A stretch of 56,732 nucleotides of DNA, counting the filler, from Piptocephalis cylindrospora (Eukaryota), in the NCBI GenBank assembly GCA_003614145.1. It is 4 parts of 4 records of this genome, joined end to end, with 100 filler letters (N's around TTAATTAATTAA, not from the genome) between each part and the next. Parts side by side here need not be neighbours in the genome. Positions count along the whole stretch, not along the records: positions 14,264 to 28,419 come from KZ987928.1; 3 more parts are not named here. One strand, written 5' to 3'. Under the pieces are notes generated by a model. The model saw nothing but the letters and a program-made list of their open reading frames with translations, searched no databases and had not been told where the DNA came from. How positions within the stretch are numbered: position 1 is the first letter of the stretch; every line of letters starts with the position of its first letter. Both the position numbers and the translations under genes were made by a program. Below, piece after piece: positions 1 through 42,721 of this stretch.

Positions 1-904
1 GGGGGGGGTAATGAAGGGTCCCGGTTCTTATAACGGTACTCTTATAGTTTAATCCCTGAAGTTATTTAATGATCAGTTTATATTTGCTTTAATTCTTGCT
101 GATCGTGTTGCCCTTGCGCTTCTAGTGTATTTTATTTCATCAAGTATGGTTCCCCGGAAGAGGAGTGACGAAAAAAAGAGTCCATAGTGGTATAAATACT
201 AGTGCACTTTCGTGAGGCCGCGCATGTTGGATTGATCTTGGCTGTTACCATTTGGAGTACATTAACGGCCTTAGGGCTAGAAAGAGGGAATGACGGTCTA
301 ATTACCGGGCATGTTCAAAGAGAGGGTGTATCAAGGCGGAGGAAGGGTAAATTAGAAGGGGGCGATTGAGGAGAAGAGATACGAGAGAAAGGAATCGAGG
401 ATATAGAGCGGTAAAGGTGATTTACATCCTTATCTATTATTAGGCCAGTAGTGTAGATAAGGAAAATAAAATTGTTCTTCAAGGAAAGCGTACAGCCCAG
501 TAAAGATGGAGATCATGATGAGTTGGCTGGGAGAGGCATCTAAGACTATTGCTTTTTCCCTCTGTAAAATAGTAGCCTAATCAATCTACTAGTGCTATCT
601 TCTCAATCATCTAGTCACACGCAGAAGAGCAAAGGTATTGAGAGGAAGAGAAAATGGGTCTGTGTATATTCTGCATGGATTGGCCCTATACGTAGTGCCT
701 CTTGGACGAGCTAAGGAAGCACCATTCACAATACAGAAAAACTAGGCAGACAACCATAGGGCCGATCTCATCCCCAAGAGATCCTATCCTCCTTGATACA
801 CCTATCGGGTAGGGTTCCGGTAGGAGCACCATCAGATAGGCAATAAAGGTAACGGCTTCATCGTTACCAAGTGGATAATGACCAGGATAATGCTAGTCTC
901 ATCA

Positions 905-5756: not shown

Positions 5757-8700
5757 GGTGACAACTGAAAGGAGACGTGTGAGGCCGGACCAGACGAGAT
5801 TGGATGATAGAAAGGGATTGATGGTTGGGATCGGGTGAGAGGTTGCTCAAAGTCAATCTCAAAAGACGATACGGAGGTGGTGCAATGGGCAGAAGCGGGG
5901 AGAAGATCAAAGGAGCGGTGCGAGACTGTATAATTTGGAGGATGGCCAGCACAGAGATGAGAAGGAGGAGGAGAAAGAGAATGGTTTAAGAGAAGGCTCG
6001 CAACAGGATGTGAGTAGGGGTGTTGGAAGCTGGAAGGGATTGCACCAGGCAATGCACAGCAGCAGGAGGGATAGGGAGAGTGAGGAGGAGGAAACGAGAG
6101 GAAGGGGAAGGTCGCGAGGGCGAGGAGGAGGAGGAGGAGGGAGATAAAGTGGGACGGGAGGGAAGATGGCGAAGGAGAAAGTGCGAGGAAGAGCGGGAAT
6201 TGGTGAAAGGAGAGAGAATGGGTATAAATAAAGAAGGGAGGAGTAGGCTTCGCAAGATATGCTTTATCGGACCTTTATACCCAGTGGATCGGTCGAGGGT
6301 TCTCGCCTCCCAAATTCGGTAGAACGAGTGACTTGAGGAAAGCAGAGATTTCCAGGGTCCCGATTACGGAGTTTGAACAAGAAGATGAAAGGTCATTCTA
6401 TCAACTCAGTCTATGCTATTAGCTTTGCACAGTGGCCGTTACATGGGAAAATCCGAGTTTGAAAAGGCACCTCCGCTCCAGAGCAGCATCGTCGTCGCTC
6501 TCCCTCTCGCCGCAGTATTCGTTGTACCTTCCGTCCTAATATTCGGAGCTTATTCAGCGTGCTTTTTTACCATGACTTTCGGAGTTTGAGACAGAAAAAT
6601 TATACAACCGACCAGCCATAATGTCCGCAGTTTACCATTGTTCTCTCTCTCCTGACCGCTTGGCACTTTATAATCTTATGGTGTCTACGGGTTTCTTCCT
6701 TCCATGATCTCTCCTCTCCGCCCTCCATCGGAGGTGTACGATAGAGAGATATGCTGATGATTGTGGAGTGGATTTATTGTGATCCATCGCTAGATCGGCG
6801 GAACTGGATGGCAGATGCCTGGTAAGGATATGTAAAGAAAGGGATGTAGGTTCTGGGAAGTGGGATAATTGAGGATGACAATAATGATGACTAGAAAAGT
6901 GGGGAAATGAGATGACTTATTTCTCAGAGAAAGACGTACCAGAGATGAAGGAAAAAATCACAGGGGGGGTTTAGAATTCTACTTCAGTTTCCATCTCAGT
7001 TTCTATCATTCTCATCTTCATCTCCATTCTAGTCTTCTCATTTTTGACCCTTCTACAGAAGGCGGTCTTCCTTTGGTTCAAGTGCCTTTCAGCATGCTTT
7101 TACGCTTCTCTTCCTCCTTCAGAGACCCAGTCAGTTGGTTCGGATAGGGAAAGGAGTAATGTCAGAAGGTTGGGCCTGAGTGCTATGGGTCTCTATCCAA
7201 CGGCCAAAATCAGCCCCTCTAATCTCAAACAACGATTAGGTAGTAAAGTACAGCTTGGTGTATCCATCAGGGATCAGAGAATTCCAAGGCGCCAAGGAGC
7301 TATCTAGATGGACTACCTATAAAACGGATTTATCCCGCCCGGGATTTGAATGGTTTATCGTGCATTCAAGCCCTAGGCAGATGTGTCCTCGCCATCTACC
7401 CCAGATTAGATGCATGAGTACTCCATACACTTCTCATGTACTCGAGTCCCAGCAATTGTGCATGAATCACTGCCTTACCGCTTGAATGATACCCGTCGCG
7501 GTCTCAGTCTTTAGCAATGATTCAGGGAATATATCGGTGAAGAGTACGACCAAACTAGGCCCAGTTCTTTTTGGCTCACTGCACTCTTCTTGAGCCATCA
7601 CATATCCATCGTATATTTTTTGGATCTTTAACTTCTTCTTAAATCCCGCCCTCTTCCCCATCCTCTTTTGTATTGGTCCTGAAGACAAGCAATAATCAAA
7701 TTATCATAAAAAACATTTCTTGTAGGAATTGAGAATGCTTTTCTTTTGACTTGTACTTTCCTGGGTACATACTGCGAATGCTCTATTTACAGGGCGCTTC
7801 TATGAATAGACATCCCTTCCATTCCTTTTTTCCTATACACATCTACCCCAGCGGAGGCCAAAGTATGACGAAAATATGATGATAATAAAATCGCTTTGCT
7901 TTCCTTCAACAAAGTAGGCTGACAGGTATCCGAGCGCAGTATTCATTTGAACGGTTAGCATGCGCATGCATGAGAACAGTGCCTAATGAACAGTAATTCT
8001 CATCAAGGTGGTGTGCATTCTGATATTTTATTTATGTAATAAAGGATGTGATTTTAACGGTTTAAAAATATTCTCTATCTCTACTACTGATAAAAGAGTG
8101 AGTTATTATTGGTATTATATGTTGAGTGTCAAAGGAGCATATGGCATGGTCACCCTGGTACCACACAGGCCGGCTTAAGGGTGGGTATTACGTTCGGATA
8201 TCCATCAGCCTACCCCACCTAGGGAAAATAGAATGGGCTCACTATTACTACAGCATATGATATGGTCAACATCTGTGTAGTTATGTAGAGATACAATATC
8301 TGCCATAAGCACTCATCCAATATGCATACACTCAACCGTTTCACTTGTCTCAGAGCATAGCCTTGGGCGTTGTGGTGATTAGAAGCGTGTGCATCATCCT
8401 GACTGCGAGGTTAGTGGCTAATTATAGTCCTTGTCCAACACAGGAATCTCCACTTTTCTCCAAGTTTAGTACGGCACACTCACCTATGCATGTTGCATTC
8501 TAGGCTTATCCAATGGTCCCATATGCACCCCAAACCTCCTACCCTCTGAACCAATCCTGCTTAATCAATCCTGGGCACCTCTTTCGTCCTCCTCCTCACT
8601 TGCCTTGCGCCTTAGTCACAGCGGGTGTGCGTACGCACGCGTTCACTCCGCTTAGACATAAAAAGGATTAGGCTTGGCAGGCCGTGCCCATCTTCCTCCC

Positions 8701-8863
8701 TTCCCCTCTCCTCCCCTCCTCCCCGCTTCCTTCCTTAACTGCTCATTTCGCGTTCGTAAAGTCGTCTCTTCGTGCCCAGTTCCGTCCCTACGTTAGTTCT
8801 TTCGTATCCAAACCTTCGTGCCCCCTAGCTCTTTAGCCCGTTCATCAGTTTTCTTTTGCCTAG

Positions 8864-9008
8864 GTAGGTCATCTGCGAAGGATATACGGTGGTGCATTCT
8901 GAGCGCTAGCTTTGATTTTTTTTACCGCCCCTTGGAGGCGTGTGAGCTTGGGGCTTGAGGGTGTGCTAATCTAATCATCCCTTCTCCCCTCCCCTCGCCC
9001 CTACCTAG
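8864..9008 (+). other. Probable 5'-UTR intron of the kinase-like gene
   Basis: AG|GTAGGT donor at 8864, GCTAAT branch-like motif, pyrimidine tract, and TAG acceptor at 9008 (or 9012) just before ATG 9017. Confidence 0.5.
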
Positions 9009-9016
9009 CTAGCACT

Positions 9017-11564
9017 ATGTCCCACGTCACTCCCGAGAATTTGTGGAGCGAATCCAAGAAGACCATTGAGGTCTTAGAGCAAGCCCCTGTCCAGACCGAG
9101 TCTCTGATTCAGCTCTGCGGGGTATACCGGCGCCTAATTGCCCGAGAGCAAAGGATTGATCAGTTGGATAGCATGGCTATCGATCTGCTCATTGGACTGA
9201 CGGAACCTCTGCAGGCCCTGGTCAGTCATGGTGATCTGGTGGAATGCACCTCTTTGGACTCTCTTACGGCTGAAGGCCTTGGGATTGCTCAGGGCTTGCA
9301 AAAGTTTCTCCTCAATTACCATGCCCAGGGAGTCTTGTACCGGGCGTGCAACTGGATCAGCTCCTGGAATGAGCGGTCGGTTGAGACTTTTCTGAACCAA
9401 TTGGATGGATTTGATGACGGGGTAATCCGATACATCGCAAAGTACCTCCGCGCCCCAGCTTCCATTGACAGACCTGAGCGGGAGAGGCAGTCGAATGGAA
9501 TAGCACTGGAGGGAAAGGTGCAAGAGGAGGATAAGGTTCAAGTGGACGACCTTCCCGATGTGGGCGCCGCCCCTGGCCCCAAGTTTAACCCTCGTGATGG
9601 TAAGTGACATGAGGGATTCATCTGTATGCTGACTCTCTGCTCCACTCACCTTTCCCTCTCTCCTTCCCCCCCTCTCTCCTCCCCCCCCCTCTCTCTCTCT
9701 ATGTGCTATTTACTTTCGATAGACATGTTCACAGGGTCCCTTCTCGGAAGAAAGTTTGTCCTCCTCAACACTCCCATCTTGGGAACCTCGGACGCGGATG
9801 TGATTTGGAAGGCTAAGAATAAGAGGATTTGCACGGAGGTGGCCCTCAAGTTTTATCGGGTCGAGGAGCGCTTTGAAAAGGAGTGTCAAGCGCTCAAGGA
9901 CCTTGGAAGCGCCGAGTGCAAGCACATCCCCACCATCATCACGACGTTCAAGGGAAAGACAGAGACTGAAGGATGGGAGAGTTACAATTGCCTAGTGATG
10001 GACTTTTGTGAAGTTCCGCTATCCGAGTTTATCCATCAAACTCGAGGTCCAGAGCTGACCATCCACTACATCAAGATGGTGATTAGTGATATTTCCGATG
10101 CTCTCTTGGCGGTTCATCGGACAGGTTATGGTAAGTAAGCCGAGAGGGATTGTAGGAAGGTCTTGCCTCTCTCTAGAGTCAGCGTCTCATCTAACAACAC
10201 ATCCTTTCCTCCTCAACCACCTCCCATAGTGCATTGCAATGTTAAGCCCGAGAATGTGCTTCAAAAGAGGAATCCTGGCGCCTTGGTGCCCACATGGATG
10301 CTTGTGGACTTTGATTCGGCCACCCGGATCAACGAGCCCATGAGGATGACAGGAGGAGTCAACTATGTGGCACCAGAGGTGGCAGAAAATGAGCTCTTGG
10401 ACCAGGAGAGCACAGCATTCCCTGCTATTGATGCCTATGCACTTGGCCGGATCCTTCAGTTCATGATGACACCTATTGGATGGTGGCCCCGGGTGAAGGA
10501 TACGGATGAAGAGAAGATGCGATATCTCTCAGAGATGACGGAGATCAAGGTGAAGCAGACTGGGAGCGTGGATGAGCACACGGCTCGCGCAATCAACCAT
10601 CTAATCCACCGGGATCCCGATATGCGTCGGGACATTGAGCGGTTCCGGAACAGTACGTTCATCGGAGGAGGCAGCGATACAAAGGAGATGGATGATCTAA
10701 AGAAGGATACCGATGTGGCCAGGGCGGTGCACCAGCAGATGAAGACCATGCAGAGCAGTGTGGGTAACATTAGCCAGGGTATGTCGGACATTAAGCTTGG
10801 AGTGGATACGGCGGTGAACAAGATGGATGACATTATGGACAGTGTGCAGGCCATGCGTAACCAGGCATTGAACATGGCCGTGAATGTCGTTCCCCGCCTC
10901 TTCCTCCTTATTCCGGATCCCTCGAGGAACATCCTTAATGTGAGCGACTGGGGCCGAGACCATTTCACCTTTGTGTTCATGTGCGAGTGCGAGAACCCTC
11001 ATCCCGGGTACCATCCCGGGTACAAGCTGTCGGAGCCCAAGAAATTCCTGGTCAAGTACGGACCGCACATCCGACTGGTCCTCCAAATGACTTTAACCGC
11101 GGTGTCGGTGGCAGGAAAAGTCGCAGGCATCCCAACACTCTTCCCCCCCGGTACCATGGATGCGCTTCAGTCTATTGGAAAGAGCGGGGAGGAGCTCTTT
11201 GCTCGGGTGGAAGCGTTTAGCAAAAAGCTTGCGGTCATTGGGACCGAGTTGGACAAGGCCAGCGTAGTGGATCCGGTGATGAGTCAGACGGGTGGACAGG
11301 GGAAAAAGGCCTATGGTACTTTTAGTGAGAAGGATATGCGCGCCATTGAAGGTAAGGCTTTTGCGGATATGTGAGACGTGTGGCCCATACTCATGATCCC
11401 CTTTCCTTCTTCCCCCCTCAGCTTACCTTGAGAGCAAGGACCCGAGCCGGAGTCTTGGAAACCTTCGTCGGTGCACGCATCGAAAGTCCGGGGCTGTGAG
11501 ATGGCTGTGTGATGACCATCTGGATAGTGGCGAATATCTTGTGGCGAATACCGAGGAGGAGTAA
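9017..11564 (+). CDS. Protein kinase-like (probable pseudokinase) with helical N-terminal domain, coiled coil and conserved C-terminal domain
   Basis: Exons 9017-9599, 9723-10130, 10230-11351, 11422-11564. Kinase motifs: VALK, HCNVKPEN, DFD, YVAPE, DAYALG. C-terminal motifs: VPRLFLLIP, FMCEC, HPGYKL..P..F...YGP, LGNLRR...G.VRWLC..H. Confidence 0.85.
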
Positions 11565-12829
11565 GAGGATGAATTACTTGAGCTAAGCTAGCGGGGGAAG
11601 GGAAAAAAGACGGGTATGGGATGGTCAATGGGATACCAGTGAGATTGATCATGCTTGCTTTTGCCTCTTGATTGTGGTTTGATATGATTAGTGTCTAGCT
11701 GGTCCTCTTCATCCTTTGAACGATGCATTGGAATGACCCGGCATTTGTTTCCTAATGGGATATAAAAAAACACGATTCAATCTTATGGACATCTCAATAA
11801 AACACCTGATCATCCAATCTGATGGGACGCCTTTGCAATGAGACGTGTTTGTGACATAATGATTTGTCGATCTTCGTCATAGAGTACACTGCTACTCCTT
11901 CCCTGTCATTCAAGTGGGTGATTCAATGCAGTCATCATGTCTACTCTAGACTAACCAATGGACTTGAGCCCAAAGGTCAAGCTGGCTGAATGACGTCGAT
12001 TGATCATGGTAGTGTGATGGAATCAGGAGTCATCCTTTTTTGCATCCTTGCTCTGTAGGACAAAGCGCCCTCTTGCGTGTTGGTGGAGGGAGGGAGGAGG
12101 CCCTTTCAAACCAGCCGCACATCAGCCCAACCTCTAGTGCCTCCCTCGCACATTTGTCCCAGCAACAGCCACATCCTTCCAGTGCGTGTACACGACTGTG
12201 TGTGCTCCCCCTCTTCTTCTCCCTCCCCCTCCTCCTGCTCTTCCTCTACACCCACACACACTACCCATTTTTTCCACACCCACCACACACGCGGTCGTCT
12301 CTTCCCCCTCACCTTCACAAAGCCCCATCTTTCCGTCACCGCCCGGCGTCCCACTGCTCGCTCCCAGCCCTCTCTCTTTCTCTTTCTCCTTCCCTTCTCC
12401 CTCCCTCCTTCCTCTCCTTTTCCTCCCCCGTCTCCTCTATCAGTACCTGAGCACCACCCCCTGGTGCTTCCCTTGCCCACCATTCTGCGCTCCAAGCCCC
12501 CGATCCTTAAGCCAGCCATCCATACGCCGGCCTACTTGATCCTTCTTGTGTCGGTCCTCCTTCCTTTTCTTTTCGTCTCCGTCTACCGTCCCCATCACCC
12601 CGTGGTCCCAGGTACCACATCCTCTTCCACCACCACGTCCCCTGCTCCGCCTCCTCCTGCTGCAGCTGAGGAGCCCGCCAAGCAGGAATCATCCACCCTC
12701 GCGCCCCCCTCTCCCTTAGTGGATCCCAAAGTCGTTCTGGAGGACATTGCTGAACAGGCTGCCCTGAAGCGCGCAGCCGCCACTTCTGGCACCTACAAGG
12801 GCCCCAACAACTACAACGTCAACCCCAAC

Positions 12830-13922
12830 ATGACCAGTGTTGCCCGGGTGTACGCGAACGTCCTGACCCAGGAAGACCGAGAGTACTGGGATTATGATAA
12901 TGTCCAGATCACCTGGGGTTCCCAGGAGAATTACGAGGTCGTCCGGAAGATCGGACGTGGCAAGTACTCGGAGGTCTTTGAGGGTGTGGCTATCCCCGCT
13001 GACCCGACCGAGCCGCCTCGTCGGTGCGTGATCAAGGTGCTGAAGCCGGTGAAGAAGAAGAAGATTAAGCGGGAGATTAAGATCCTGCAGAATCTCTCGG
13101 GTGGCCCCAACATTGTCCAGCTCCTTGACGTGGTGCGGGACCCCACGTCCAAGACCCCGGCACTAATTTCGGAACACGTCAACAATCAGGATTTTAAGGT
13201 TTTGTACCCCACTCTGACGGATATGGACGTCCGGTACTACATCTATGAGCTTCTCCTTGCCCTGGACTACTGTCACTCTAAGGGTATCATGCATCGGGAT
13301 GTCAAGCCCCATAATGTCATGATTGATCATGAGAAGCGGCAGCTTCGTCTCATCGACTGGGGCCTCGCCGAATTCTACCATCCGGGTACGGAGTATAATG
13401 TCCGTGTGGCTTCTCGGTACTTTAAGGGTCCAGAGCTTCTCTTGGACTTTCAAGAGTACGATTATTCTCTCGACATGTGGTCTCTTGGCTGCATGTTTGC
13501 TGGCATGGTGAGTTCTATCTTGAATTACCTTTTTATCCTTCTCCTTTTGGGGTAGGAGGGTGCACCGACTTACCCCAACCTACGCGTAGATCTTCCGTAA
13601 GGACCCCTTCTTCCACGGCCAGGATAACTATGACCAGCTGGTCAGGATAGCTCGTGTCCTCGGGACGGATGCCCTGTTCCAGTATGTGGAAAAGTACGAG
13701 ATTGATCTGGATCCCCAGTACGATGACATTCTGGGTCGGTATCAACGACGACCCTGGGAAAAGTTTGTCACGCCCGAGAACCAGAGGTACATCTCCAAGG
13801 CGGCCCTGGACTTTCTGGACAAGCTCCTTCGGTACGATCACCAGGAGCGACTCACTGCGCAAGAGGCCATGGAGCACCCCTACTTTGCCCCCGTCCGTGC
13901 TGAGCGCGAGGGTAAGATGTGA
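12830..13922 (+). CDS. CKA1: Casein kinase II catalytic subunit alpha
   Basis: MTSVARVYA...[56 protein letters not shown]. Exons 12830-13507 and 13590-13922. The first in-frame ATG is 12830. Confidence 0.97.
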
Positions 13923-14074
13923 GTTGGAGTGTAGGGTCTATCCTGGTTCTGGGATGGCTAGAGTGGTGTTGGTGTGTGTGTATGGCGTGTGTGGCTGTCA
14001 CGAGAGACTCAATGGATGTGAAGAGGATTTGTCCATGTGTTCTGTTATCGCTTGAAGAATTCAATGTGATTCAT

Positions 14075-14105
14075 GTGTGTGTGGTGTGTGGTGTGTGTGT
14101 GTGTA

Positions 14106-14163
<58 letters not shown>
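14075..14163. repeat. (GT)n / (ATGTGT)n microsatellite at contig end
   Basis: Directly visible; abuts the N-run. Confidence 0.9.
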
Positions 14164-14263
14164 NNNNNNNNNNNNNNNNNNNNNNNNNNNNNNNNNNNNN
14201 NNNNNNNTTAATTAATTAANNNNNNNNNNNNNNNNNNNNNNNNNNNNNNNNNNNNNNNNNNNN
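14164..14263. other. Artificial contig linker (N-TTAATTAATTAA-N)
   Basis: N-runs flank a six-frame-stop spacer; the same structure occurs three times. Confidence 0.95.
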
Positions 14264-14582
14264 ACAAGGGTGTCTTGAGATGAATACTATTCACCTTTCT
14301 TCCCTCTCTTACTTCCATTTCTATCTTTAGCCCATCTTGTCGTTCGTTGATCACTCGTCTCTTCCTCAGCTTGTTTATTTGACCGCCTGTGCTTCGTATA
14401 CGTCCCGTTCATCCTACTCCACATCCTTATCCGGGTTCAACCCTTGTCTATTTATTCGCTACGGGCATATCATTGCCACTGATCTCCTCGTCTCTTCCAC
14501 AACCGCTTTATTCACCTTCTTGTCTCCTGGTCTTGTTCTCTTCATCAGCATTTTGCTGACCCTTTCCATATCCCTGATCCTC

Positions 14583-17303
14583 ATGCCCCCTCCCTCGCTA
14601 CTAGGGCAGTATGTAAGTTCAAGGGTGGAAACGGTGACCATCCATCCTTGCCCCACTCACCCATCTCCCCTATGTGATAGGCCTTGGGGGAATGTCTGGG
14701 GAAGGGTGCATATGGTTCGGTTTTTCGGGGATTTAACACGCAAACCGGAGAAAGTGTCGCGGTAAAACGCATCAAGCTCAAAGCCCTTTCTCCTTCAGAT
14801 ACTGAGCGATTGATGGTGAGTCACAGGTCTTTTTACTGGGGTGGGACCATGCTAAATCCAATATATCCTTACAACTCACTCTTCCCTCTCTTTCTAGGAC
14901 GAAGTAACGATCTTGAAGCGGGTCCGGGTATGTCCTGCTTTTGATGATATGGCAGAGAAAGGAAAAAATATTCATCTTCTACTCACACGACCATCTTGAA
15001 ACCATTTCTCTTCCTCCCTCCCTTCCTTCAGCACCCTAATATTGTGTGCTTCTACAATTATCACCTTGACGCCCGGTACTTGCACATTTTTCTCGAGTAA
15101 ATATTCATTTATGGATGGACGTATGCTCAGAAGGAATGTTCAGACCTACTCAGTCCATCTTCAACCCTCTCTTACCATCAGATATTGCGAAGGGAGTTCT
15201 TTAGAGGCTTTGTACAGAAAGTTTGGTGTCATGGCCGAGCCATTAGCAACTCGGTACATCGTGCAGATCTTGGAGGGTTTATGTTTCATTCATGATCGAG
15301 GTATTATCCATAAGGACGTTAAAGGTATGTGCACGGGTTTCTCTTGCCTTTGAGCCTCCCATCTCACGCTTGTTCTGCACTCTTAGCAAGTAACATTCTC
15401 ACGACAAAGGATGGGTCTATCAAATTGGCCGACTTTGGCGCCTCTTCGGAGGCCAACCGTCCGGACCAGAGTACCATAGGATCGCCATATTGGATGGCCC
15501 CGGAGGTCATTCACTTACAAAATGTGGATTTTGCCTCGGATGTGTGGAGCCTTGGGTGTACGGTCCTGGAACTCTTGCAGGCTCGCCCTCCCTATGCTGA
15601 CCTTTCACCCGTGCAGGCCCTTTTCCGGATGGTTAATGATCTCCACCCTCCCTTTCCGGAGAAGATGAGCGACGCGGGAGATGATTTTTTAAGGAGGTGT
15701 CTCCAGCAGGATCCCAAGCATCGATATCCCGTCCGCCGACTATTGCAGCATTCATGGCTGACAAGCGCAAGAAGAAAGGTAGGGGAGAGAGGGAGTGGTG
15801 TGTATTTACAATATTTCTGATGTAGTATATCTGTAGATATTCTTGAAACAAGCTGGATCAGATGAAAAGAGATTGTCAAGTCCTACCAGTGCACCTGTGA
15901 GCCAGACAGCCAGGACCCAGGTTCCTAGAAGGGCCAAGACCATGGCCGAGGCTGACATGGGATCCGAAGAAAGGTTTTATCTGGCTGATGAAGAGGGGGA
16001 CGAAGGGGAAGAGGCAGGCGGGGATGGGGATACAGCGGGCTTATCCTCCGAGGGAGAGGTGAATTGGTCCAGTTCCTCATCTCATCCTGATTCACCTTTG
16101 CACGAGGACAAGGGAAAAAACACAGGGATTTCAGTATTCCCCTTGTCCTCTCCATTATCCCTGAATCCCCAGGGGGAGCCCTCATCTGCCTCATCTACAC
16201 CCAAAGCTCCCTTGAAGCGTATGGTTTTATCGGATTCTGAGGAAATAGGAGAGAGATTGGGGAGGGGGGGAAGGGGAGCTAGAGGAAGGGCCGGAAGTGT
16301 GGAGGGGGTTTGGGAGGAGGGAATAAGGGGTCATCCTCAATCCCACCCTACCGCTTCCTCTCCAACACCTCAAAAGTCCAAGATTGGTGGGATGAGGAGA
16401 AGGCTAAAAGGAAGGAGCGTGGAGGGGAACAGGACAGTTAGGCCGACATCCTCTTCAGGAAGCAAGTATGGAGTAGCTAATGATGAGGAGGAGGCAGATA
16501 ATTTGGATGAGGCGTTTGCTCAAGCTGCTACGAGAGTTCAGCTTCCTCGGTTCCGGTCGATCTATGAGCAGGTGGCTTTTCTTACCCTGTCAGGGCCCTC
16601 CTCTAGGGATCCCACTCTCTCGCCCCCTTCCCTCCCAACAACGACGATGCAACCCACCTCCTTTTCCTTCTCCTCTGCCTCCGCCTCCACCTCTACCAAT
16701 ACCACCACCAATACTACGACTAGCACGGCCTCCAACCCCTCACCTCCACCAGGGGCTCATGGAAGGATGAGATGGAAGGGTCGATCTGGGGGCCATCGGA
16801 TCCGACCCGAGTCTCCGGGATCCCCACTGGATGACTATGCCCGTCCTAGGTCGGTAGACCGTTGTAGGTCAGTGGATCAGCCAGGATTGACTGAGCGGCC
16901 AGGCTCAACAGACCGGACCAATAGTAGTATAGGAAGCTCAAGATGGAGTGAGACGCAGGACGAAGAAGATGAGTATGAGGGCCTGGTGAGTGGGGAGGAG
17001 GAGGAAGAGTTTGTTCGACGGATTCATGATTTCCAGGTAGGTGCTCTGAAGACATGCTAGGGGCGGGGAATGAGAAGGATGGACAGAACACTCATTCTTT
17101 GCCCATATGATCTGTGGATTTGCAATGGGGAGGGAGATAGAGAAGGACCCACCAGCTTTCCCATCCCATAGCGACGTCAATCCCCTCCCATCTGTCCTCC
17201 CCCCCAGATTCTGGAGAGTCCCATAAAATGGGGTTTCCTTGAAGAGAATGAAGGAGAGGAGGAGGTGAGCAGTTTGATGAGTGAGGGGAGGAGGGAGTCA
17301 TAA
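14583..17303 (+). CDS. STE-group Ser/Thr kinase, Cdc7/SepH/Cdc15-like kinase domain with a low-complexity tail
   Basis: LGECLGKGAYGSVFRG..TGESVAVK, HPNIV, HKDVK.ASNIL, KLADFG, GSPYWMAPE, QALFRMVND.HPP.P. Approximate exons 14583-14612, 14681-14815, 14898-14927, 15033-15096, 15182-15324, 15388-15778, 15837-17036, 17209-17303. The 3' end is less certain. Confidence 0.85.
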
Positions 17304-17424: not shown

Positions 17425-18890
17425 CTATTGATCAACACCAAAGGAAGGGATACCCGTGATGGCTTTGCCGAGAATAAGGGCATGTATATCGTGGGTACCC
17501 TCGTAGGTGTTGACGGCCTCGAGGTTCATGACATGACGGATGATGTGATACTCGTCGTTGATGCCATTTCCACCCAGGATATCCCGCATCTCTCGGGCAA
17601 TGGCTAGGGATTTGCCGCAGTTATTGCGTTTGATTAATGAGATCATCTCCGGGGCCACGCGGCCCTCATCCTTGAGCCTGCCTACCCGAAGGCACGCCTG
17701 GGTCCCAAGGGCAATTTCGGCATGAGCATCTGCCAGCTTTTTCTGGATGAGCTGAAATCGGGCTAATGGAGCGCCAAATTGAGTTCTAAGGTGAAGGGGA
17801 TGAGCTTGACTGTATGAATCTCAAAATACTACTGTGGCTTACCGGTTCAAGGCATATTCCCTAGCCTGGACAAGACAAGAGTTGGCGGCACCAAGGGCGC
17901 CCCAAGAAATGCCATACCGTGCATTGTTCAGGCAGCCGAAGGGGCCCTTGAGGCCATGGACATTCGGAAGGAGGTTTTCCTTGGGGACGGGAACATCCTC
18001 CATAAAGATGCCTCCGGTAATGCTCGCACGAAGGGAGAATTTCCCGTTGATCTTGGGAGCAGAGAGACCGGGCATACCCTTTTCCAGAACAAATCCCTTG
18101 ATCTTACCTCCGTCGTCCAAGTCCTTGGCCCAGACGACAAATACATCGGCGATGGGGCTGTTGGTAATCCAGGTTTTGGAACCGCTCAGACGGTAGGAGT
18201 CACCGGAGCGACGGGCAACCGTAGACATGCCAGCGGGATCAGAGCCATGATCGGGTTCGGTGAGGCCAAAGCACCCCACGAGTTCGCCGCTCCCCAGGCC
18301 CGGAAGCCACTTTTCCCTTTGGGCATCGGTGCCGTAAGCCCAGATGGGATGCATGACTAGGGAGGATTGAACGGACATGGCGCTTCGGTAGCCCGAGTCA
18401 ACGGCCTCGACCTCTCTGGAAATAAGTCCATAGGCTACCGAGGAAGCCTCGGCCCCATATGGTCCTGGTAGGGTAGCACCTAGCATGCCTAGTTCACCGA
18501 ATTCCCGCATGATATCTAGGTCAAAGTGTTCCTCCCGAGTGGCTTTGATGACACGGGGAAGGAGCTTTTCCTGGCAATAGGACCTTGCAGTGTCACTGAA
18601 GAGGAAGTAATGTATGCGAGCTGTGAGGGGAGAGAGAGAGAGAGAGAGATGGTGAGAAGGAAGAGAACTTACCGAACTAGAATTTCCTCCTCAGTCAATT
18701 GACTCTCCAGGTCCAATGGGTCCTCCCAGTTGTACTTGGCTAGCTTGGCCGGACCATTGGAGGCCAGGGTCCGGGGGGTAGCGTGTAAGTTCCGGAGGAG
18801 ATACTGACTAGTGATGGGTCTCTTGGAGGCAAGGCCGAATCCACGAGTGAGCATTCGACCAGAAGTGGGCATACCGGAAAGGAGGGACAT
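17425..18890 (-). CDS. GCDH: Glutaryl-CoA dehydrogenase, mitochondrial
   Basis: [70 protein letters not shown]; Arg/Ser/Leu-rich presequence. Exons 18890-18673, 18595-17843, 17785-17425. Confidence 0.95.
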
Positions 18891-19351
18891 GGTGGTGGTG
18901 GTGGTGGTGGTAGCGAAAGATGAATAGATGGTTGGATTCAGAGAAGGCGAGGATGAGAGGAGTTGGAATTCCCCCACCAGGATGGACGGGGCCAAGAGCC
19001 GGGGGAAGGGTGAATATTTATACTATGTCCGGGAGTGCTTATCCGGTCACCTGATCCAGTTCTCTCTTCCACGTTAGAGCGTCTCCATGACGCCGTTTCC
19101 GTACGCGCTGGTGTGTGGGGCGGGGAAAGGCCGTGGGAGTTCGGTGGGGCTTTACCCCACGCGCAGACGGGTTCTTTCCCATGGGCGCTTGCTCTGGGGG
19201 AAATTTGGGGCCGTGTATGTATGTATGTATGTATGTGTTATTGTTATCATTACTATCCTCACTCTCTTTGGGCCTGGTGCTGGGACTAAATAACGCATTT
19301 GCAGGACAATGGCCATTTGGTTGTATAAAAATTTATTGTCTTATGGGGAAA

Positions 19352-19844
19352 CATACTGTTGTGTAGCTGGATGGCAGTGGTGAGGTCGCTCGGTAGGCCT
19401 AGGTGTGCGGCGAGTAGGGCTGAGTGAGCAAACATAGCTGGGCGGTGTCTGTGGAGCTACGTATGGAAGAAGTCTATGTAAGGGATTGGTCTGAGAGGCC
19501 GCTTTAATAGGCATTGATGCGACGACGGGCCACATAACGGATGATGGTGATATATAAGGCTGAGCGCGTAGCGCCCAGGAAGATGGGCCAGGGGCGTGGG
19601 AGAGGTTCGATCCTTCCCTTTTCCTTTCATCAGTATACTCTTATTCTCGTCCAGTTCCCCTTCTCTTTTCCCTCTCTGATTTATACTGTGTTTGCGTTCT
19701 AGTCGTAGCGTTCTGTCGACCCCATATTCATCTCACATCATATCACCCGGCACAGCAACTGTCTCTCTGACTGACCTCCCCCCAGTCAAATCAATCACAC
19801 CTGCTAAATTCGGCGAAATCAAGCACAGAAAAATTACCCAACAG
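19352..19844 (+). repeat. Left arm of a long inverted repeat
   Basis: 19438-19844 is the reverse complement of 22410-22816 (407 bp, only ~3 mismatches seen by eye); more diverged homology extends outward to ~19352/~22897. Confidence 0.95.
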
Positions 19845-20141
19845 TGTCATCCTTGCGTTTCTAGCGCATTTTATTTCATGAAGAATGGTTTTCTGCAAGA
19901 AGGATAATGAAGAAAAGGTTCCATGGTGGTATAAACATCGGCTCAGTTTCACAATAGATAGTATAAGACAGCAGTCAAAATGATCACGCTATACTCAATC
20001 ATACTGCATACATAAGGGATAAATAATAGCGTAATACGTATTCCCTACACAATTGGATGGTTAAACGATAAATTCTATATTGATCAGGAGCTTGGTCCGC
20101 TCAGATAGGTAATGATATCGATTATTTTTCTGCCGAAAATC

Positions 20142-21312
20142 TTAAAAAAGAAAACGATAGTCTTGGACGGGTTCAGGGGCATTTCCGAGAATATCGTCCA
20201 CCTCCTTCATCAGATCATCGGTGAGGAGCTTGGAAATTTTCAAGGCCTTGATGTTCTCCCGAACCTGTTCAGGTCGACTGGCGCCGGTGATAACTGAGCT
20301 AATATGAGGATTGCGAAGACACCAGGCCAGAGCCAGTTGAGCTTGTGTGCATCCGAGCTTCTCAGCCACGGGAGCAAGGAGCCGAACTCGTCGAATTTTG
20401 TCCTTGCCCTCATCAGTCTCGAGCCTCGAGCGGATGTCGCTCATCACAAAGTCATTCTTAAGGGAAAGACGCGTCCCCTCGGGGATCCCATCGTTGTACT
20501 TGCCGGTCAGAAGGCCTGAGGCTAGAGGAGACCAGATGGTCGTACCCAGGCCTGGGTTCTTGTAGAGTGGGGCATACTCCACCTCCACCCGCTTCCTCTG
20601 GAACATGTTGTATTCGGGCTGCTCCATCACTGGGCCCACCAGGCCCAGACGACTAGCTACCGCATGTGCTTCCGTGATCTGGGCTGCGCTCCACTCACTG
20701 GTCCCCCAGTAAAAGGCCTTTCCCTGATCGATCACATGGTTAAACGCTCGGACCGTCTCCTCCATGGGAGTCGCTGGGTCTGGGCGATGGGCGTACAGGA
20801 GATCTACGTAGTCAAGACTGAGCCGGGCCAGAGAGGCATTGGTGCCCTCGATGATGTGCTTTCGGGAGAGACCTCGATCATTAGGGCCCTTGCCGGCCCA
20901 GAAGAGCTTGGTGGAAATGACCAGGTCGGACCTTTTCCACCCATACTTTTTAATGGCCTGCCCCATCACAACTTCACTTTGTCCATCTATAAACGGCAGA
21001 GAGGTAAGGGGGATGTCGGGTCAGAGGCTGGGTAGAGGGCCCCTAATGGACGTCTAGGAGGACTTACCGGCATACACCTCAGCCGTGTCGAAAAAATTGA
21101 TGCCCGCATCATACGCGGCCTTCATGCACTCAAAGGTTACATTTCCATCGACTTGATTACCGAATGTGACCCTGAGACAGACGGATGAGTAGAGGCCAAA
21201 TGGGCTGTGATGCCTTTCGCTCTCCAGGGATAACTTACCATCCTCCAAGTGAAAGGGCGGATACTTTGAGGCCGCTGTTGCCAAGAAAACGGTATTCCAT
21301 TTCAGTAGTCAT
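20142..21312 (-). CDS. Aldo-keto reductase, voltage-gated K+ channel beta-subunit-like (AKR6 type)
   Basis: [72 protein letters not shown]. Exons 21312-21239, 21171-21068, 20986-20142. Confidence 0.93.
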
Positions 21313-21573
21313 TTTGAGGGGATGTGATATAGCTTAGGAGGAAAGATATAATGGGGAAACAATGAATGGTTTTCTTTACAATCCCCCCCTTCTCGCTTGC
21401 TTCCTGTGAGGGGTATTTATAGATTTTGGGCTGGTCTGATGTTACAAAACCCTTAGGAACTTGCTATCTCATTATATTGGAGAATGGTAATCTTTTCCCG
21501 TGAAGCCCAGTAAATTAGATGATTATATCAGCAGCATGCCAAGGAAAAAACCATTAAAAGCATCAAAGCATTC

Positions 21574-22119
21574 CTAGTGCTTGGAATTCGCCACGTAGCT
21601 GAAAGAGGTAGGCATGGGAAGGAAATGACAAAGTATTTAGGATGTATCTAAATCCTTTTCTGTGAAATCTGGTAAATTACCTTGTACTAGTAATGCGCTC
21701 AAGAAAAATCAGGTCTAGAGCGCCTCTAGTGTTTGGAATTCGCCACGTAGCTGGAAGTGGTAGACGTCGGAAGAAGATATAGGAAAACTCCGAGGATGTA
21801 TCTGAATCCTTTTCTGTGAAACCTGGTAAATTGGTTGTACTAGTAATGCGCTCAAGAAAAATCAGGTCTAGAGCGCCTCTAGTGTTTGGAATTCGCCACG
21901 TAGCTGGAAGTGGTAGACGTCGGAAGAAGATATAGGAAAACTCCGAGGATGTATCTGAATCCTTTTCTGTGAAACCTGGTAAATTGGTTGTACTAGTAAT
22001 GCGCTCAAGAAAAATCAGGTCTAGAGCGCCTCTAGTGTTTGGAATTCGCCACGTAGCTGGAAGTGGTAGACGTCGGAAGAAGATATAGGAAAACTCCGAG
22101 GATGTATCTGAATCCTTTT
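21574..22119. repeat. 153-bp tandem repeat, ~3.6 copies
   Basis: Units start at 21574 (diverged), 21726, 21879 and 22032 (CTAGTG[T/C]TTGGAATTCGCCACGTAGCTG...). The last three look identical over their shared length. Confidence 0.95.
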
Positions 22120-22409
22120 GTATACAACCTGATGGGAATACTTCTTAGGTTGGATTATATCAGCAACATGCTATGACGCTAAACGCTCCTGGCCCTTGGG
22201 ATCGACCACACTGTCCCTCCTGTCCCCTGATCGTGCAGAGGGTCTAGCATTATGTCAGGTGTAAGTCTCACAAGCACACACGACAAAGCAGATGTGCCCA
22301 CTCGCCGAGGTCCTGGTTGCACAGGTGTCAGAATGACAACGCGACCTATCAACTCACAATTAGAAAAAACGTCAGAATAGATAGAAAACCTATATATTTT
22401 TTAGGGCCT

Positions 22410-22897
22410 CTGTTGGGTAATTTTTCTGTGCTTGATTTCGCCGAAATTTGCGGGTGTGATTGATTTGACTGGGGGGAGGTCAGTCAGAGAGACAGTTGCT
22501 GTGCCGGGTGATATGATGTGAGATGAATATGGGGTCGACAGAACGCTACGACTAGAACGCAAACACAGTATAAATCAGAGAGGGAAAAGAGAAGGGGAAC
22601 TGGACGAGAATAAGAGTATACTGATGAAAGGAAAAGGGAAGGATCGAACCTCTCCCACGCCCCTGGCCCATCTTCCTGGGCGCTACGCGCTCAGCCTTAT
22701 ATATCACCATCATCCGTTATGTGGCCCGTCGTCGCATCAATGCCTATTAAAGCGGCCTCTCAGACCAATCCCTTACATAGACTTCTTCCATACGTAGCTC
22801 CACAGACACCGCCCAGTTACGCTGGCTTAGTCCTACTCGCCACACACCTAGGTCTACAGAGCGACCTCATCACCACCATTCCGCTACGCAACGCCAT
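22410..22897 (-). repeat. Right arm of the long inverted repeat
   Basis: Reverse complement of 19352-19844. Confidence 0.95.
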
Positions 22898-23622
22898 GCT
22901 GTATGGGCTCTAATTTAGTAGTAAACAGCGAAATGTATTGGGAAAATTACACAATGGCCATTTGAAGAGGCGCTTGCTCGCAAATCACGGCGAGACCTAG
23001 TCTTTTTGAGAATAATTTACTACACCATCACCCTTCTGAGTAGACACCGTGCAAAGTGGTATCCGGGGAGTAAACTGATGATGGCGATGGTTGATCCTGA
23101 CCTACTGAAACTGATGGTAGTTCTTTCCTGTTATATACTGCCCCCTCTTGGAAAGGGTCTAGGAGCCCTGATGCTAGCCTATCAATTACTTGAAGGTCAA
23201 ATGCCCCTATACAGTGATGGTACTATTTCCTTGGAGGATGTTCTAACAGATAAATCATCCTCAAGGTCCACTCTACTATGAAAGCCCTCATTCCTGAACT
23301 CCTCCCCACACCTTACACAAGACTGGTCATCTCTGACAAGCCTTTTGCCAGCTAGTGCAGTCAGAATGTGTGGGCGCGATCCTTTGCGCTGTCTGGGGGC
23401 CACACAAATACAAAGCGCGAGCTCTGTCCACTCGGCATCCTCCTCGTCAAAGGACAGCGGCGTGGATGGGGCGATTTTTCTTTTTTCCCCGCCAAGCACC
23501 AGCTCCTAATCTTATAAGTCGGCTCGTCTTCTCGCTTATCACGATCCTTCCTCTTCCTTTTCTCTTCCCTCTTTCCTCGCCCTTCCCTCTCTCACACATC
23601 TTCCTTTCCCTTCTTCCTCCTC

Positions 23623-26600
23623 ATGTCGGACGCTGACCGTTTGTATCAACTTCTCAGTGCCACGTTTCACGCGGATACGGCCACTCGTTCCCATGCTGAA
23701 GAGCAACTTAAACAGGTAATTTTCTCTTTCCTCCTTGACCTTCTCCCTCGTTCTTAACCTGTCCATCTCCTCTCCGTGAAATAGTTACACTCCTCCCCGG
23801 GATTTCTACCCCTCCTCCTTCAAATACTGTCAGCGGACAGCGCTGATGGAGCCGTTCGACAGGCTGCGGCAGTGTACTTTAAGAACCGGGTGAAGAAGGA
23901 TTGGGACCCTTCCTCTGAAGAGACTAATTTGATCTCGGAGACAGACCGAGACACCATCCACTCCAACGTCCTCCCTGCTCTGGTTCAGGCACCGGCCTCT
24001 CTCCGATCCCTGTTGACCCCGGCCCTGGCCTCCATCCTGACCCGGGATTTTCCAGATCACTGGCCCTCCTACCTCCCTCAGCTGGGGTCGCTCATTCACT
24101 CCCAAGACCCCCAATCGGTCCACGGGGCCCTCATGGCCCTTCGAGAAACCATTAGGGTTTACCAATGGCGGGTATCCTCAAAGCGTGCGCCGCTTGTAGC
24201 TTTGGTCAATGAGACCTTCCCCACTATCCTCTCCCTTGGTCAATCCCTCGTCCCTTCCCTACTTACTGGGCCCTCAGCCGAGATGCTCACTCTGATTTTC
24301 AAGACGTACTTTGGTAGTGTTCAATATGACATGTCCGAGGCCCAGCAGGACCCGGAGCGCATCACCCTTTGGACTACGCTCATGCTTCAGGTCATCCGAC
24401 AGGAAGATCCTGCCTCCCATCAGCTTCCCGCCCTCCTTACGGCTACGGCATCTCCAGAGGCTCTTGGGGCAGAGGAGGAGAGGGAGGCCTCGTCGCTGTG
24501 GAAGGCCAAGAAGTGGGCCATGCATTGTCTCAATCGCCTCTTCACTCGGTATGGAAACCCTGCCCTTCTCGGGACTCATTCTAAGAGGTATGAGGGCTTT
24601 GCCAAGTGGTTCTCTACCCATATTGCTCCTTCGGTGCTGGAAACGTATGTAGGCCTCATCGAGTCTCGTGTGTGGTTGAGCGCTCGATGCAACTGCCTTC
24701 TCTCCCTCTTCCTTGGAGATGCCATCAAGTATGGAGATACCTGGGCGCTCCTTAAGCCCCACACGATGACCCTGGTATCCAACCTCATCCATCCCCGTCT
24801 TTCCCACTCGGCCAGGGATGCGGCTTTGTGGGCCGAAGATCCAATTGATTATGTGCACAAGCGTATTGATCCTCTGGAAGACTTCCGGACTCCGCTTTCT
24901 GCTGCCTTAAACCTCCTCACTGACCTGGCTCGCGATCGGAACAAGGCCACATTCCTCCCTATTCTCGGATACATCAATGAACGTCTTCTCGCCTACTCCT
25001 CCTCCGCCCAGAGCCTGGATCATGTGTACGGAAAGGATGGAGCCCTGTGCATGATTGGGGCCATGGCCGGTTTGACCCTCCGGAAGAAAAGCCCGGTCCG
25101 GGCACAGATGGAAGAGTTCCTCCTCACTCACGTCATACCCGAGTTTACCAGCCCACACGGGTTCATGCGGGCTCGTGCCTGTGAAGTCATGTCCCATTTT
25201 GCCGGGCTAAACTTTTCCCAGCCGGATCGTCAGTCTCATATCCTTCAGGCTACCCTGCAGTGTCTTCATGACTCGGAGATCCCCGTTCGTATCCAGGCCT
25301 CCCTCGCCCTTCGTCCTCTGATTGGGATGGAGGAAGTACAGGAAGTGATGGTACCACAGCTTCCGGGAATCATGCAGGAGCTTCTGTCCTTGGCCAATCG
25401 CGTTGATGCCGACACGCTCTCCGGGGTCATGGAGGAGTTTGTGGAGGCATACGCCGAAGAGCTATCCCCTCTAGCCGTACAGCTGTGTCAGGAACTCCGG
25501 GATACCTTCCTTCGTCTCCTCGCGGATGTCCCTCTGGCTGGAGGCCCTGAGGTTAGCNNNNNNNNNNCGGATGTCCCTCTGGCTGCAGGCCCTGAGGTTA
25601 GCTTGTCCGAGGGTGACATAAACGCTATGGGTGAGAAGACCATGGCAGCCATGGGGGTGCTCAAGACCATCGGGACCCTGGTCCTTTCCCTGGAAAACGG
25701 CTCTCCGGAGACCATGCAGCAGATGGAGGATGCCTTACTCCCAGTGATCAGCTTTACTCTAGAACGTCGCCTGGTCGATTTGTACGATGAGGTCTTTGAG
25801 ATTGTTGACTGCTGCACCCTTGCCGCCAAAAACGTCTCTCCCGGCCTCTGGAGGATCTTTGACCTGACCCACCAGGTCATCCTCGAGGACCATGGCACGG
25901 GCCTAGAATATGTGGATGAGATGCTCCCATCCCTCGATAACTTTATAAACTACGGGGCCCAAGCCATTAAAGAGGATCTTGGTCGGCAACAGCAGTTTGT
26001 CTCCATCATCAACACGATTCTCCAGGGTGAGTATGCCGGCGAGACCGATCGCGTATGTGCGTGCAAACTCATGGAGCGCATGATGCTGAATATGCCTGGA
26101 GCCATTGACCAGCTTATCCCCCATTTCCTCGACATCATCTCCCCTATCCTCCTTGCTCCCCCCTCTGAGGACTCAAAAAAGGGAGGGGCTCGCACCAAGG
26201 CTCTCCGGGTACATGGCCTGGAAATCCTCCTCAATGCTCTATTCTATAACGCCTCCCTCACTCTAAGGTACTTGCAGTCCAAGGACCCTCAGATCATCAC
26301 TTCTCTCTTCTCTCTGTGGTTCCAGTCTCTAAGTGACTTTACCCGTGTCCACGACAAGAAGATCTCTATTCTTTCCCTGTGCTCCCTCCTTGAATCTGCT
26401 GGCCCCGAGCTCTCCTCTCTTCCTCCATCCATTGCCTCCTCCCTCCCCGATCTCCTCTCGGCCCTGGCTCTTCTTCTTCAGTCCCTACCCAAGGCCTTGG
26501 AAGGTCGCGAGCGTCTCTCTGACCTCTACGGAGATGGCAGTGGGGAAGGCGAGTCGGATGACCTGATTGAGGATGGAAGCTTTGACGATTCCTACGAAAT

Positions 26601-26940
26601 CGACGAGAATGCCGATGAGGATGGAGACGTGGCCGGGGAAGATGATGAGTACCTTGAATTCCTTGCCCAGCACGCCGCCAAGATGAATGGTGAAACCGCA
26701 GATGGGGATTGGGAGGATGCTGATGAAGGCGATGAGGAGGACGAGGAGGACGATGGCCTCGGTGAGGAGCTTCTCTTTGAAACCCCCCTCGATGCCATCG
26801 ATCCGTATGTCCGCGTCCGCGGGGTTTTGGAGTCCCTTGAGGCTCATAAGCCCCAGATCTACTCTGCTCTCACTGCCCAGGTAACTCCCGAGCAAAGAGA
26901 GATTCTTACTGATGCCGTATCTCGTGGCGCTACAGCCTAA
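23623..26940 (+). CDS. NMD5: Importin-7/8 family karyopherin (Nmd5-like)
   Basis: IBN_N region (RQAAAVYFKNRVKKDW, DFPDHWP), WKAKKWAMHCLNRLFTRYGNP, FMRARAC, RVHDKKISIL, acidic C-terminal tract. Exons 23623-23715 and 23785-26940; contains a 10-N gap. Confidence 0.9.
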
Positions 26941-28419: not shown

Positions 28420-28519
28420 NNNNNNNNNNNNNNNNNNNNNNNNNNNNNNNNNNNNNNNNNNNNTTAATTAATTAANNNNNNNNNNNNNNNNNNNNNNNNN
28501 NNNNNNNNNNNNNNNNNNN
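28420..28519. other. Artificial contig linker
   Basis: N-TTAATTAATTAA-N. Confidence 0.95.
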
Positions 28520-42584: not shown

Positions 42585-42683
42585 NNNNNNNNNNNNNNNN
42601 NNNNNNNNNNNNNNNNNNNNNNNNNNNNTTAATTAATTAANNNNNNNNNNNNNNNNNNNNNNNNNNNNNNNNNNNNNNNNNNN
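42585..42683. other. Artificial contig linker
   Basis: N-TTAATTAATTAA-N. Confidence 0.95.
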
Positions 42684-42721
42684 NCGAGAGACCTCTGGCG
42701 GGGGTGGGGGGGTGGTCGACG

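Follow-up and report, generated by a model that had tools for sequence, protein, structure and literature searches.

There is a 3.65-kb insert in the 1.1-kb head-to-head gap between the genes GCDH and NMD5 of the fungal parasite Piptocephalis cylindrospora, and it carries an intact aldo-keto reductase (AKR) gene between long inverted arms. With a probability of roughly 0.5, we consider this insert to be what is left of a DIRS1-like (tyrosine-recombinase) retrotransposon, namely its two termini, with the interior probably replaced by duplicated host DNA that includes the AKR gene. The locus lies within a stretch of 56,732 nucleotides, filler included (assembly GCA_003614145.1), which is called the window here and along which all positions are counted. 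Its features are as follows.

17425 to 18890, minus strand: flanking host gene GCDH (glutaryl-CoA dehydrogenase), start codon at 18890; Pfam Acyl-CoA_dh N/M/C, 99% to P0122
19306 to 19319, plus strand: left 14-bp direct repeat, overlapping the start of the repeat family (19316-19317) by its final 3-4 bases
19316 to 19356, plus strand: left outer extension, AT-rich and high-copy, NTT at its start, a candidate DIRS lE (sequencing-run contigs)
19357 to 19437, plus strand: left arm, divergent outer stretch with about 77% identity to the right arm, first letters TGTTG (arm alignment)
19438 to 19844, plus strand: left arm, conserved core, last letters CAACA (arm alignment)
19846 to 19956, no strand assigned: piece of another repeat ('C') of very high copy number, belonging to the cargo; a further copy is at window positions 112-196
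20142 to 21312, minus strand: AKR, intact, 3 exons, Kv-beta (AKR6-like) subfamily, 340 aa (336 from the second Met) (gene model, TIGR01293)
21574 to 22119, no strand assigned: tandem array with 3.6 copies of a 153-bp unit, identical among the middle copies, lying 260-800 bp upstream of the AKR start
22410 to 22816, minus strand: right arm, conserved core, pointing inward, sense to AKR (arm alignment)
22817 to 22893, minus strand: right arm, outer divergent part, with family-type letters where the arms differ (arms compared with the contig table)
22894 to 22950, plus strand: right outer extension, a candidate DIRS rE, whose distal part recurs in family copies just behind the arm's inner end
22951 to 22964, plus strand: right 14-bp direct repeat (exact repeat search)
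23623 to 26940, plus strand: flanking host gene, NMD5-like importin-beta, start codon at 23623; Pfam IBN_N, 99% to P0136

The initial annotation had described inverted arms of about 490 bp with a near-identical core of 407 bp, a complete 3-exon AKR gene and a tandem array between them, a 14-bp repeat in the same orientation at 19306 and 22951 outside the arms, and no transposase, and all of these descriptions are borne out. The arms (19357-19843, plus, and 22411-22893, minus) measure 487 and 483 bp and are 95.5% identical over 487 bp. Their 22 differences are graded along the repeat, wherein the outer 81 bp hold 19 (15 substitutions and one 4-base gap), the next 364 bp none and the inner 42 bp three, which are also the only mismatches of the core pair (19438-19844 and 22410-22816). 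Identity is accordingly 99% in the conserved part and 77% in the divergent part. Beyond the arms lie extensions of 41 bp on the left and 57-70 bp on the right, for which homology to one another was rejected (p 0.9).

Other copies of the family are known here only from sequencing-run contig tables, in which 24 of 89 loose ends and 32 of 136 pieces are listed. Both the arms and the left extension belong to a repeat family at hundreds-fold depth: relative to unique DNA, the X1 contigs give approximately 305-344x for the left extension and 214-347x for the arm, and the X2 contigs have the left extension at far greater depth than the arm. A reading of the arm as a duplicated host promoter was given up because the arm proved to be high-copy. 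The AKR gene stands at single-copy depth, and therefore the cassette has not multiplied. Exact-pattern scans returned no matches in viral contigs and none in metagenome contigs.

The boundaries of the family are also visible in these contigs. At its left end, two X2 contigs join from unrelated flanks, giving TTT and CTT, and with the TTT at this locus the pattern NTT is found in three of three flanks among those listed. A further TTT at 22961-22963, on the right side, may be target DNA. The unique left contig stops at 19346, which puts the start of the family at 19317 rather than 19306, and thus a circular permutation of the tyrosine-recombinase type through the whole 14-mer is unlikely.

In family copies, the inner end of the arm continues into the sequence that forms the right extension here (29 of 30 displayed letters agree with 22917-22946; the contig at this loose end, behind 19845, has depth 3019), and the left extension continues, at loose ends behind 19350 and 19347, into sequence that is not part of the arm. 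The two continuations may represent the halves of an ICR-type junction of about 47 + 35-40 bp, as compared with 55 + 33 bp in the ICR of DIRS-1. There are two deep inner continuations of the arm (X1 records 4 and 5), and one X2 contig extends 5,498 bp beyond the arm's inner end, a stretch that would suit a DIRS-sized interior and so counts for this reading. In addition, X2 record 10 ends exactly at the merge point expected for a contig of right arm plus extension, 22945, by arithmetic calibrated on the array. Some letters are common to both arms and absent from the deep family contigs (e.g. 19697, 19720, 19727 and 19759, plus two indels), as would be expected from replication in which one repeat serves as template for the other. 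The joined form, right extension - NTT - left extension, was not seen among the loose ends listed, and a 5.7-kb X2 contig has no joint to the left extension in the contig table, where a close match should have shown.

DIRS1-like termini are described as an extension followed by a divergent and then a conserved repeat, with both extensions present in fungal elements (PMC3266345, PMC3783388). The insert resembles Dictyostelium DIRS-1 and the fungal RoDIRS1, MciDIRS1, PblDIRS1 and AmDIRS2 in its inverted repeats, which are divergent outside and conserved inside, in its unpaired extensions, in the NTT at its left boundary and in candidate family junctions of ICR type and similar size. Its extensions fall within the published ranges (12-64 bp left, 9-75 bp right), whereas its repeats exceed them, with a divergent part of 81 bp against 8-36 bp (50-85% identity) and a conserved part of 407 bp against 31-304 bp, and are longer than in all 28 tabulated elements. 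Also unlike those elements, this copy has TG...CA arm ends, and it holds a whole intron-containing host gene instead of ORFs and an ICR. The putative family ICR would leave the divergent 81 bp uncovered, which counts against the reading, and the 14-bp direct repeat conflicts with the description of DIRS integration as leaving no target duplication. Nevertheless, extensions, graded inverted repeats, NTT-bounded left ends and candidate ICR-type junctions are together best fitted by DIRS1-like termini. DIRS elements have been reported from Mucoromycotina and Kickxellomycotina.

The 14-mer occurs at 19306 and 22951 only, and its copies lie 37 bp (left) and 57 bp (right) outside the arms. The analytic expectation for such a pair is 3e-5, and in a random control 2 of 19,380 pairs of 100-bp windows had at least 14 letters in common. 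The left copy likely reflects target sequence that was duplicated at integration.

The copy between GCDH and NMD5 lacks gag, RT, RH, MT and YR genes by ORF list, Pfam and six-frame scans. No transposase, reverse transcriptase or recombinase family was matched in the scanned ORFs or in a six-frame read-through of 19021-20144 and 21313-22124, and the interval 22125-22410, covered by the ORF list alone, has no ORF longer than 73 aa. Six-frame Pfam read-through of 1-9000 together with the same two intervals gave weak matches in 6 of 24 frames and no transposon family; the best, DUF6334 at 25.4 bits, has a score inflated by the tandem array. Eight local alignments between the termini and the interior all failed to score better than shuffled sequence (lowest p 0.18), so that there is no sign of an ICR inside this copy. 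Lacking both an ICR and element genes, the copy is not filed as a DIRS member and is probably immobile. An Rfam scan gave two matches (E 0.21) far under the gathering score and no ribozyme, and therefore a Penelope-like reading is without support.

In the related species P. tieghemiana, the GCDH and NMD5 accessions are consecutive and AKR is on a different contig. Judged by this accession order, the site appears empty, as the initial annotation had proposed to look for in relatives, and the AKR gene appears not to be ancestral between GCDH and NMD5. For these reasons AKR probably arrived at the P. cylindrospora site. The idea of a gene-carrying mobile cassette is thus upheld in that an apparently non-ancestral gene is packaged by mobile-element ends, but not as regards spread, with AKR at single-copy depth. 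Similarly, the counter-proposal that the arms are a common dispersed repeat around an AKR gene in its ancestral place is correct for the repeat, but ancestral synteny was not found.

Under the DIRS1-like reading, a family member would first have integrated in the GCDH-NMD5 gap, its ends joining at staggered short homologies such that 14 bp became duplicated. Perhaps the paired arms were then opened at the base of the stem and the interior was refilled at the DNA level from the parental AKR locus, which would keep the introns, the promoter and the neighbouring repeat fragment. Without an ICR, the resulting unit would be unable to retrotranspose again. From their sequence we infer that the arms could act as inward promoters: the left core carries a TATA-like box at 19551 and a C/T-rich tract that point inward, antisense to AKR. 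If both arms are active, sense and antisense RNA would be produced over AKR. Inversion of the interior by recombination between the arms, as raised in the initial annotation, is possible, and would let 2.57 kb flip while leaving the context of AKR unchanged.

The foremost competing explanation, which we regard as less probable but a real rival, is that each arm is a solo LTR, derived from an ordinary LTR retrotransposon and lying within what remains of an older AT-rich LINE/SINE-like insertion whose 14-bp target duplication survives. AKR would have come in by ectopic LTR recombination, and later gene conversion, perhaps with inversion of the interior, would have made the cores identical. The TGTTG...CAACA ends and the clean junctions at all four arm ends speak for this, since TG...CA ends are an LTR signature; the left arm ends in TG...CA with a terminal inverted match of 8/9, and the right arm starts with CG. 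In their outer 81 bp the arms are about as different as two independent members of the family would be. A 14-bp duplication fits target-primed insertion, and the minus strand of the left extension, which ends in AATAAA and a short CAA-like tail, also speaks for the older insertion. There is, however, no duplication of 4-6 bp at either arm in either interior orientation, which recombination between copies would erase, and no primer-binding site or purine tract was recognised by eye. Coincidences would also be needed to explain why one short sequence follows the arm's inner end in family copies but lies beyond its outer end here, in opposite relative orientation. A precedent is AVR-Pita of Magnaporthe, flanked by Inago1/2 solo LTRs (PMC3145791), in which retroelement ends likewise flank an intact gene away from its ancestral site and ectopic recombination is a candidate route. 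Unlike in that case, the brackets here are near-identical and inverted, the gene encodes a metabolic enzyme and one move is evident.

A bolder variant of the DIRS1-like reading, which we think unlikely, might be called 'Pack-DIRS'. It would have a DIRS-family element take up the complete intron-containing gene first and then move it to another chromosomal site by means of the family's reverse transcriptase and tyrosine recombinase acting in trans. The introns would have survived because the cargo runs antisense to the transcript of the element, and the pair of inward promoters would now silence or tune the gene. If this were true, it would also be the first DIRS family from Zoopagomycotina.

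Far less probable than either the DIRS1-like or the solo-LTR reading is the proposal, close to that of the initial annotation, of a DNA transposon resembling Pack-MULEs, whose long terminal inverted repeats captured a gene that then moved by cut and paste. As in Pack-MULEs (PMC5861414), there is a non-autonomous unit with long inverted repeats of a high-copy family and host DNA inside, with a likely parent elsewhere, and the apparently empty site in a sister species also speaks for the proposal. Unlike those elements, the unit lacks an 8-11 bp duplication directly adjoining the arms, the 14-mer being set off from them, and it is a single copy with a complete gene and promoter. Furthermore, the family starts 40 bp outside the left arm, the two outer extensions are unrelated, and this model does not predict that the right extension recurs inside family copies.

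Similarly improbable is an artefact, either a fold-back chimera that produced one of the arms or an assembly path that ran through repeats and drew in the AKR contig. Published genomes of this species stem from single-cell amplification. Between the unique left contig (ending at 19346) and the AKR contig (starting at 19934) lie about 590 bp of repeat, and none of the contigs listed bridges this interval or has the left arm's letter at 19802. Collapse could inflate both the 100% core identity and the array copy number. A fold-back chimera would, however, be an exact inverted copy up to an abrupt junction, whereas 22 differences separate the arms, and at four of the five such places with a displayed family row it is the right arm that has the family letter (the fifth falls in the gap). 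In addition, a second library has a 99% core copy whose length fits the right terminus, and the path rejoins the ancestral neighbour NMD5, which is not expected of a chance mis-join.

Mutator, CACTA, Helitron and LTR elements, as well as Starships, are well known to capture genes. A literature search of titles and abstract openings showed no report of a host gene carried by DIRS termini and none of a Piptocephalis DIRS family. Were the shell of DIRS origin, a retroelement with a tyrosine recombinase would have helped to duplicate and relocate a whole metabolic gene, which would now stand between two facing promoters, in a fungal lineage described as very poor in transposons. With solo LTRs as arms, this would be an ordinary repeat-mediated gene move. 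Either way, there is one locus, with no sign of spread or phenotype.

The AKR gene itself is composed of exons at 21312-21239, 21171-21068 and 20986-20142, with GT..AG at both introns and 340 codons ending in one stop. The RNA pieces listed for X3 and X4, which cover a small share of the stretch, include no contig of the window's own AKR type; this is not taken as silencing because contigs cannot show absence. A 91%-identical, parent-like version of AKR is represented by one X1 contig (depth 2.6) that has 12 displayed letters in common with RNA contigs of another study, and spliced RNA contigs of this version match the intron lengths of the gene described here. Asp53, Tyr58 and Lys86, which we take to be the catalytic residues, are in place. 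The protein scores 392 bits against TIGR01293, above the family cut-off of 365.4, and in these respects it resembles Kv-beta/AKR6-type reductases (PDB 1exb, 8hw0), although in the alignment Kv-beta2 has Asn where this AKR has His126.

There is a complete aldo-keto reductase gene (AKR) with a tandem array between long inverted arms, as the initial annotation proposed. The features of this 3.65-kb unit and its flanks are:

17425..18890, minus strand: GCDH, flanking host gene
19306 and 22951: starts of the two copies of a 14-bp direct repeat
19316..19356: left extension
19357..19843: left arm
20142..21312, minus strand: AKR
21521..22171: array region upstream of AKR
22411..22893: right arm, inverted
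22894..22950: right extension
23623..26940, plus strand: NMD5, flanking host gene

The arms are 95.5% identical over 487 bp, and their 22 differences are unevenly spread: the outer 81 bp hold 19, the inner 42 bp three and the 364 bp between them none (Fisher p 1.5e-12, boundaries picked post hoc). The two junctions with the cargo lie no more than 1-2 bp from the inner arm ends. The 14-bp repeat, previously placed just outside the arms, occurs only twice in the window and is not explained by chance (among 19,380 random window pairs, 2 did as well), but its copies are separated from the arm edges by 37 and 57 bp.

AKR has three exons and 340 codons, its introns of 67 and 81 bp are both GT..AG, and its product scores above the Kv-beta cut-off and retains Asp53, Tyr58, Lys86 and His126. 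A 19-bp direct repeat flanks the 153-bp array on both sides, and the array units range from identical to 63%. The array resembles a promoter segment that has recently expanded, and it could alter AKR expression.

Contigs from four sequencing runs (X1-X4) were mapped to 18700-21570; X1 may be the window's own source and is thus not independent. Contig depth in X1, which is not a copy count, has single-copy values in the left flank (22) and AKR (27), and rises to 5,200-8,500 in arm bins, 2,700 in the left-extension bin and 20,000 at 19852-19947. Identity to the window is below 95% in 60 of the 87 mapped contigs. The arms and left extension are clearly part of a large dispersed family, and the cassette as a unit has not multiplied. 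Short-repeat copies at 112-196 and 19851-19935, 79% identical, carry the highest X1 depth (20,000-28,000) and are present in the RNA runs too.

The junction evidence for this family comprises 24 of 89 loose contig ends and 32 of 136 pieces. Among the ends listed, a unique left contig stops at 19346, and two X2 contigs, whose unrelated flanks give TTT and CTT, enter at 19316/19317; together these place the family's left end here, beginning NTT. In other copies among these ends, the left extension runs on into non-arm sequence. Beyond the inner arm end, a contig of depth 3,019 has 29 of 30 listed letters in common with 22917-22946, a segment that lies outside the right arm in the window, yet behind the inner arm end in the family contig. 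A second deep contig departs there into 92 bp of different sequence, and an X2 contig extends 5,498 bp beyond. In another X2 contig (record 10), 245 of 247 letters match the conserved inner core (19438-19844 / 22410-22816) starting at 19438, where the two arms diverge from each other; the remaining 129 letters, by count alone, bring the contig to 22945, the very position at which the depth-3,019 junction and the right extension would meet. The same length arithmetic correctly predicts the end of the AKR contig at the array (21711). With its 51 additional letters, an X1 contig (record 2, depth 1,524) would end one letter before 22945.

According to the available part of PMC3266345, DIRS1-like ends have NTT at their boundaries and are built of an extension, a divergent repeat and a conserved repeat, the internal complementary region (ICR) adjoins the right repeat and mirrors both extremities, and fungal elements carry both extensions. 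In the DIRS model the left repeat is restored from its right counterpart, and the ICR (33 + 55 bp) was needed for retrotransposition by experiment (PMC7192593, in part). Such anatomy predicts the family junctions seen here, private letters common to both arms, and similar depth of left extension and arm, as in X1. However, the 14-bp duplication counts against it, and the arm repeats are longer than any tabulated for DIRS1-like elements. There is no joined ICR among the listed junction evidence, and a 5.7-kb contig has no joint to the left extension. Because neither an ICR nor element genes were found in the window's copy, we do not class it as a DIRS1-like member, although it looks derived from one.

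We favour, at roughly even odds (about 0.5), a DIRS-like shell with a replaced interior. The paired arms may have been cut at the stem base and the interior refilled from the parental AKR locus at the DNA level; the position of the cargo junctions suits such cutting. In a bolder variant, AKR would have been captured before the move and the ICR lost later; the expected transcript of the left arm would run antisense to AKR and thus spare the AKR introns during an RNA step. Promoter activity is reported for both DIRS repeats (PMC3950715, in part). For the window's copy, inward promoters, antisense RNA and interior flipping are predictions only. The interior may lie in either orientation between the arms.

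The TG...CA arm ends, with an inverted match of 8/9, count against DIRS1-like anatomy and suit an LTR. Perhaps, then, two solo LTRs sit inside an older repeat and AKR was brought by ectopic recombination, a tentative alternative; no 4-6-bp duplication was found around either arm. Ectopic recombination has been proposed for AVR-Pita (PMC3145791, in part). A Pack-MULE seems improbable: such elements have a duplication of 8-11 bp (PMC5861414, in part), and none of that kind lies flush with the arms here. Published P. cylindrospora genomes derive from single-cell amplification (PMC6784888, in part), and assembly may thus have polished both the array length and the 100% core, but an outright assembly or amplification artefact is improbable: the right arm has the family letter at four of five listed positions where the arms differ, and both arms share core letters absent from deep family contigs, which argues against a fold-back chimera.

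AKR exon 3 matches a P. cylindrospora protein at 100% identity, and no second protein of this species is found among the best 120 of 7,994 matches. The GCDH, AKR and NMD5 accessions run in series (RKP13870-13872). In P. tieghemiana, GCDH (KAI9228292.1, 90.3% identity) and NMD5 (KAI9228293.1, 78.0%) are each on a 135,654-bp contig, and AKR (KAI9227777.1, 82.6%) is on a 110,462-bp contig. An empty GCDH-NMD5 site can thus be read in one sister species, via accession order rather than DNA; without the insert the gap between these head-to-head genes is 1,087 bp. AKR probably arrived at this site in P. cylindrospora, though it may instead have been lost from it in P. tieghemiana. The initial annotation had also weighed a common dispersed repeat around an ancestrally syntenic AKR; X1 depth bears out the repeat, whereas the separate contig of the P. 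tieghemiana AKR speaks against the synteny. Within NMD5, a 35-bp duplication around 10 N (25523-25602) is an assembly overlap and not biology.

RNA contigs of X3 and X4, one sample from another study, differ from AKR at 74 positions over 833 bp (91% identity) and have both introns spliced. An X1 contig of depth 2.6 agrees with them at 12 of 12 letters listed for 20295-20397, out of its 17 differences in total and with 40 of 170 variant rows listed. The 22 listed variants touch 18 codons, and 12 changes are synonymous; at the six non-synonymous codons the second version has the P. tieghemiana residue in four, that of the window in one and neither in one. It is thus nearer P. tieghemiana at most listed amino-acid differences, and it (20153-20985) has a stop a few codons earlier. 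The simplest reading of these sequences is that the second version would be the parent copy, possibly unassembled, and the cassette AKR a diverged, intact duplicate; the alternative is a contaminating strain.

DIRS elements are reported in Mucoromycotina and Coemansia (PMC3783388, in part), the available part of PMC13465315 mentions neither Zoopag- nor Piptocephalis, and Zoopagomycotina are said to have very few transposons (PMC10386755, in part). DIRS ends carrying a host gene were not found among the open-access literature entries listed. The unit is a real, single gene-carrying shell and is probably immobile.

Elsewhere in the window, 1-8000 is gene-poor and low in GC (43% vs 52%), with degenerate local repeats at 1336-1631 and 1939-2325, short pieces of multi-exon look and no Pfam match in six frames. 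The gaps at 14164-14263, 28420-28519 and 42585-42684 (44 N + 12 bases + 44 N) are read as scaffolding joins. Several protein-kinase ORFs (Pfam) lie close together on the plus strand at 8975-15820.
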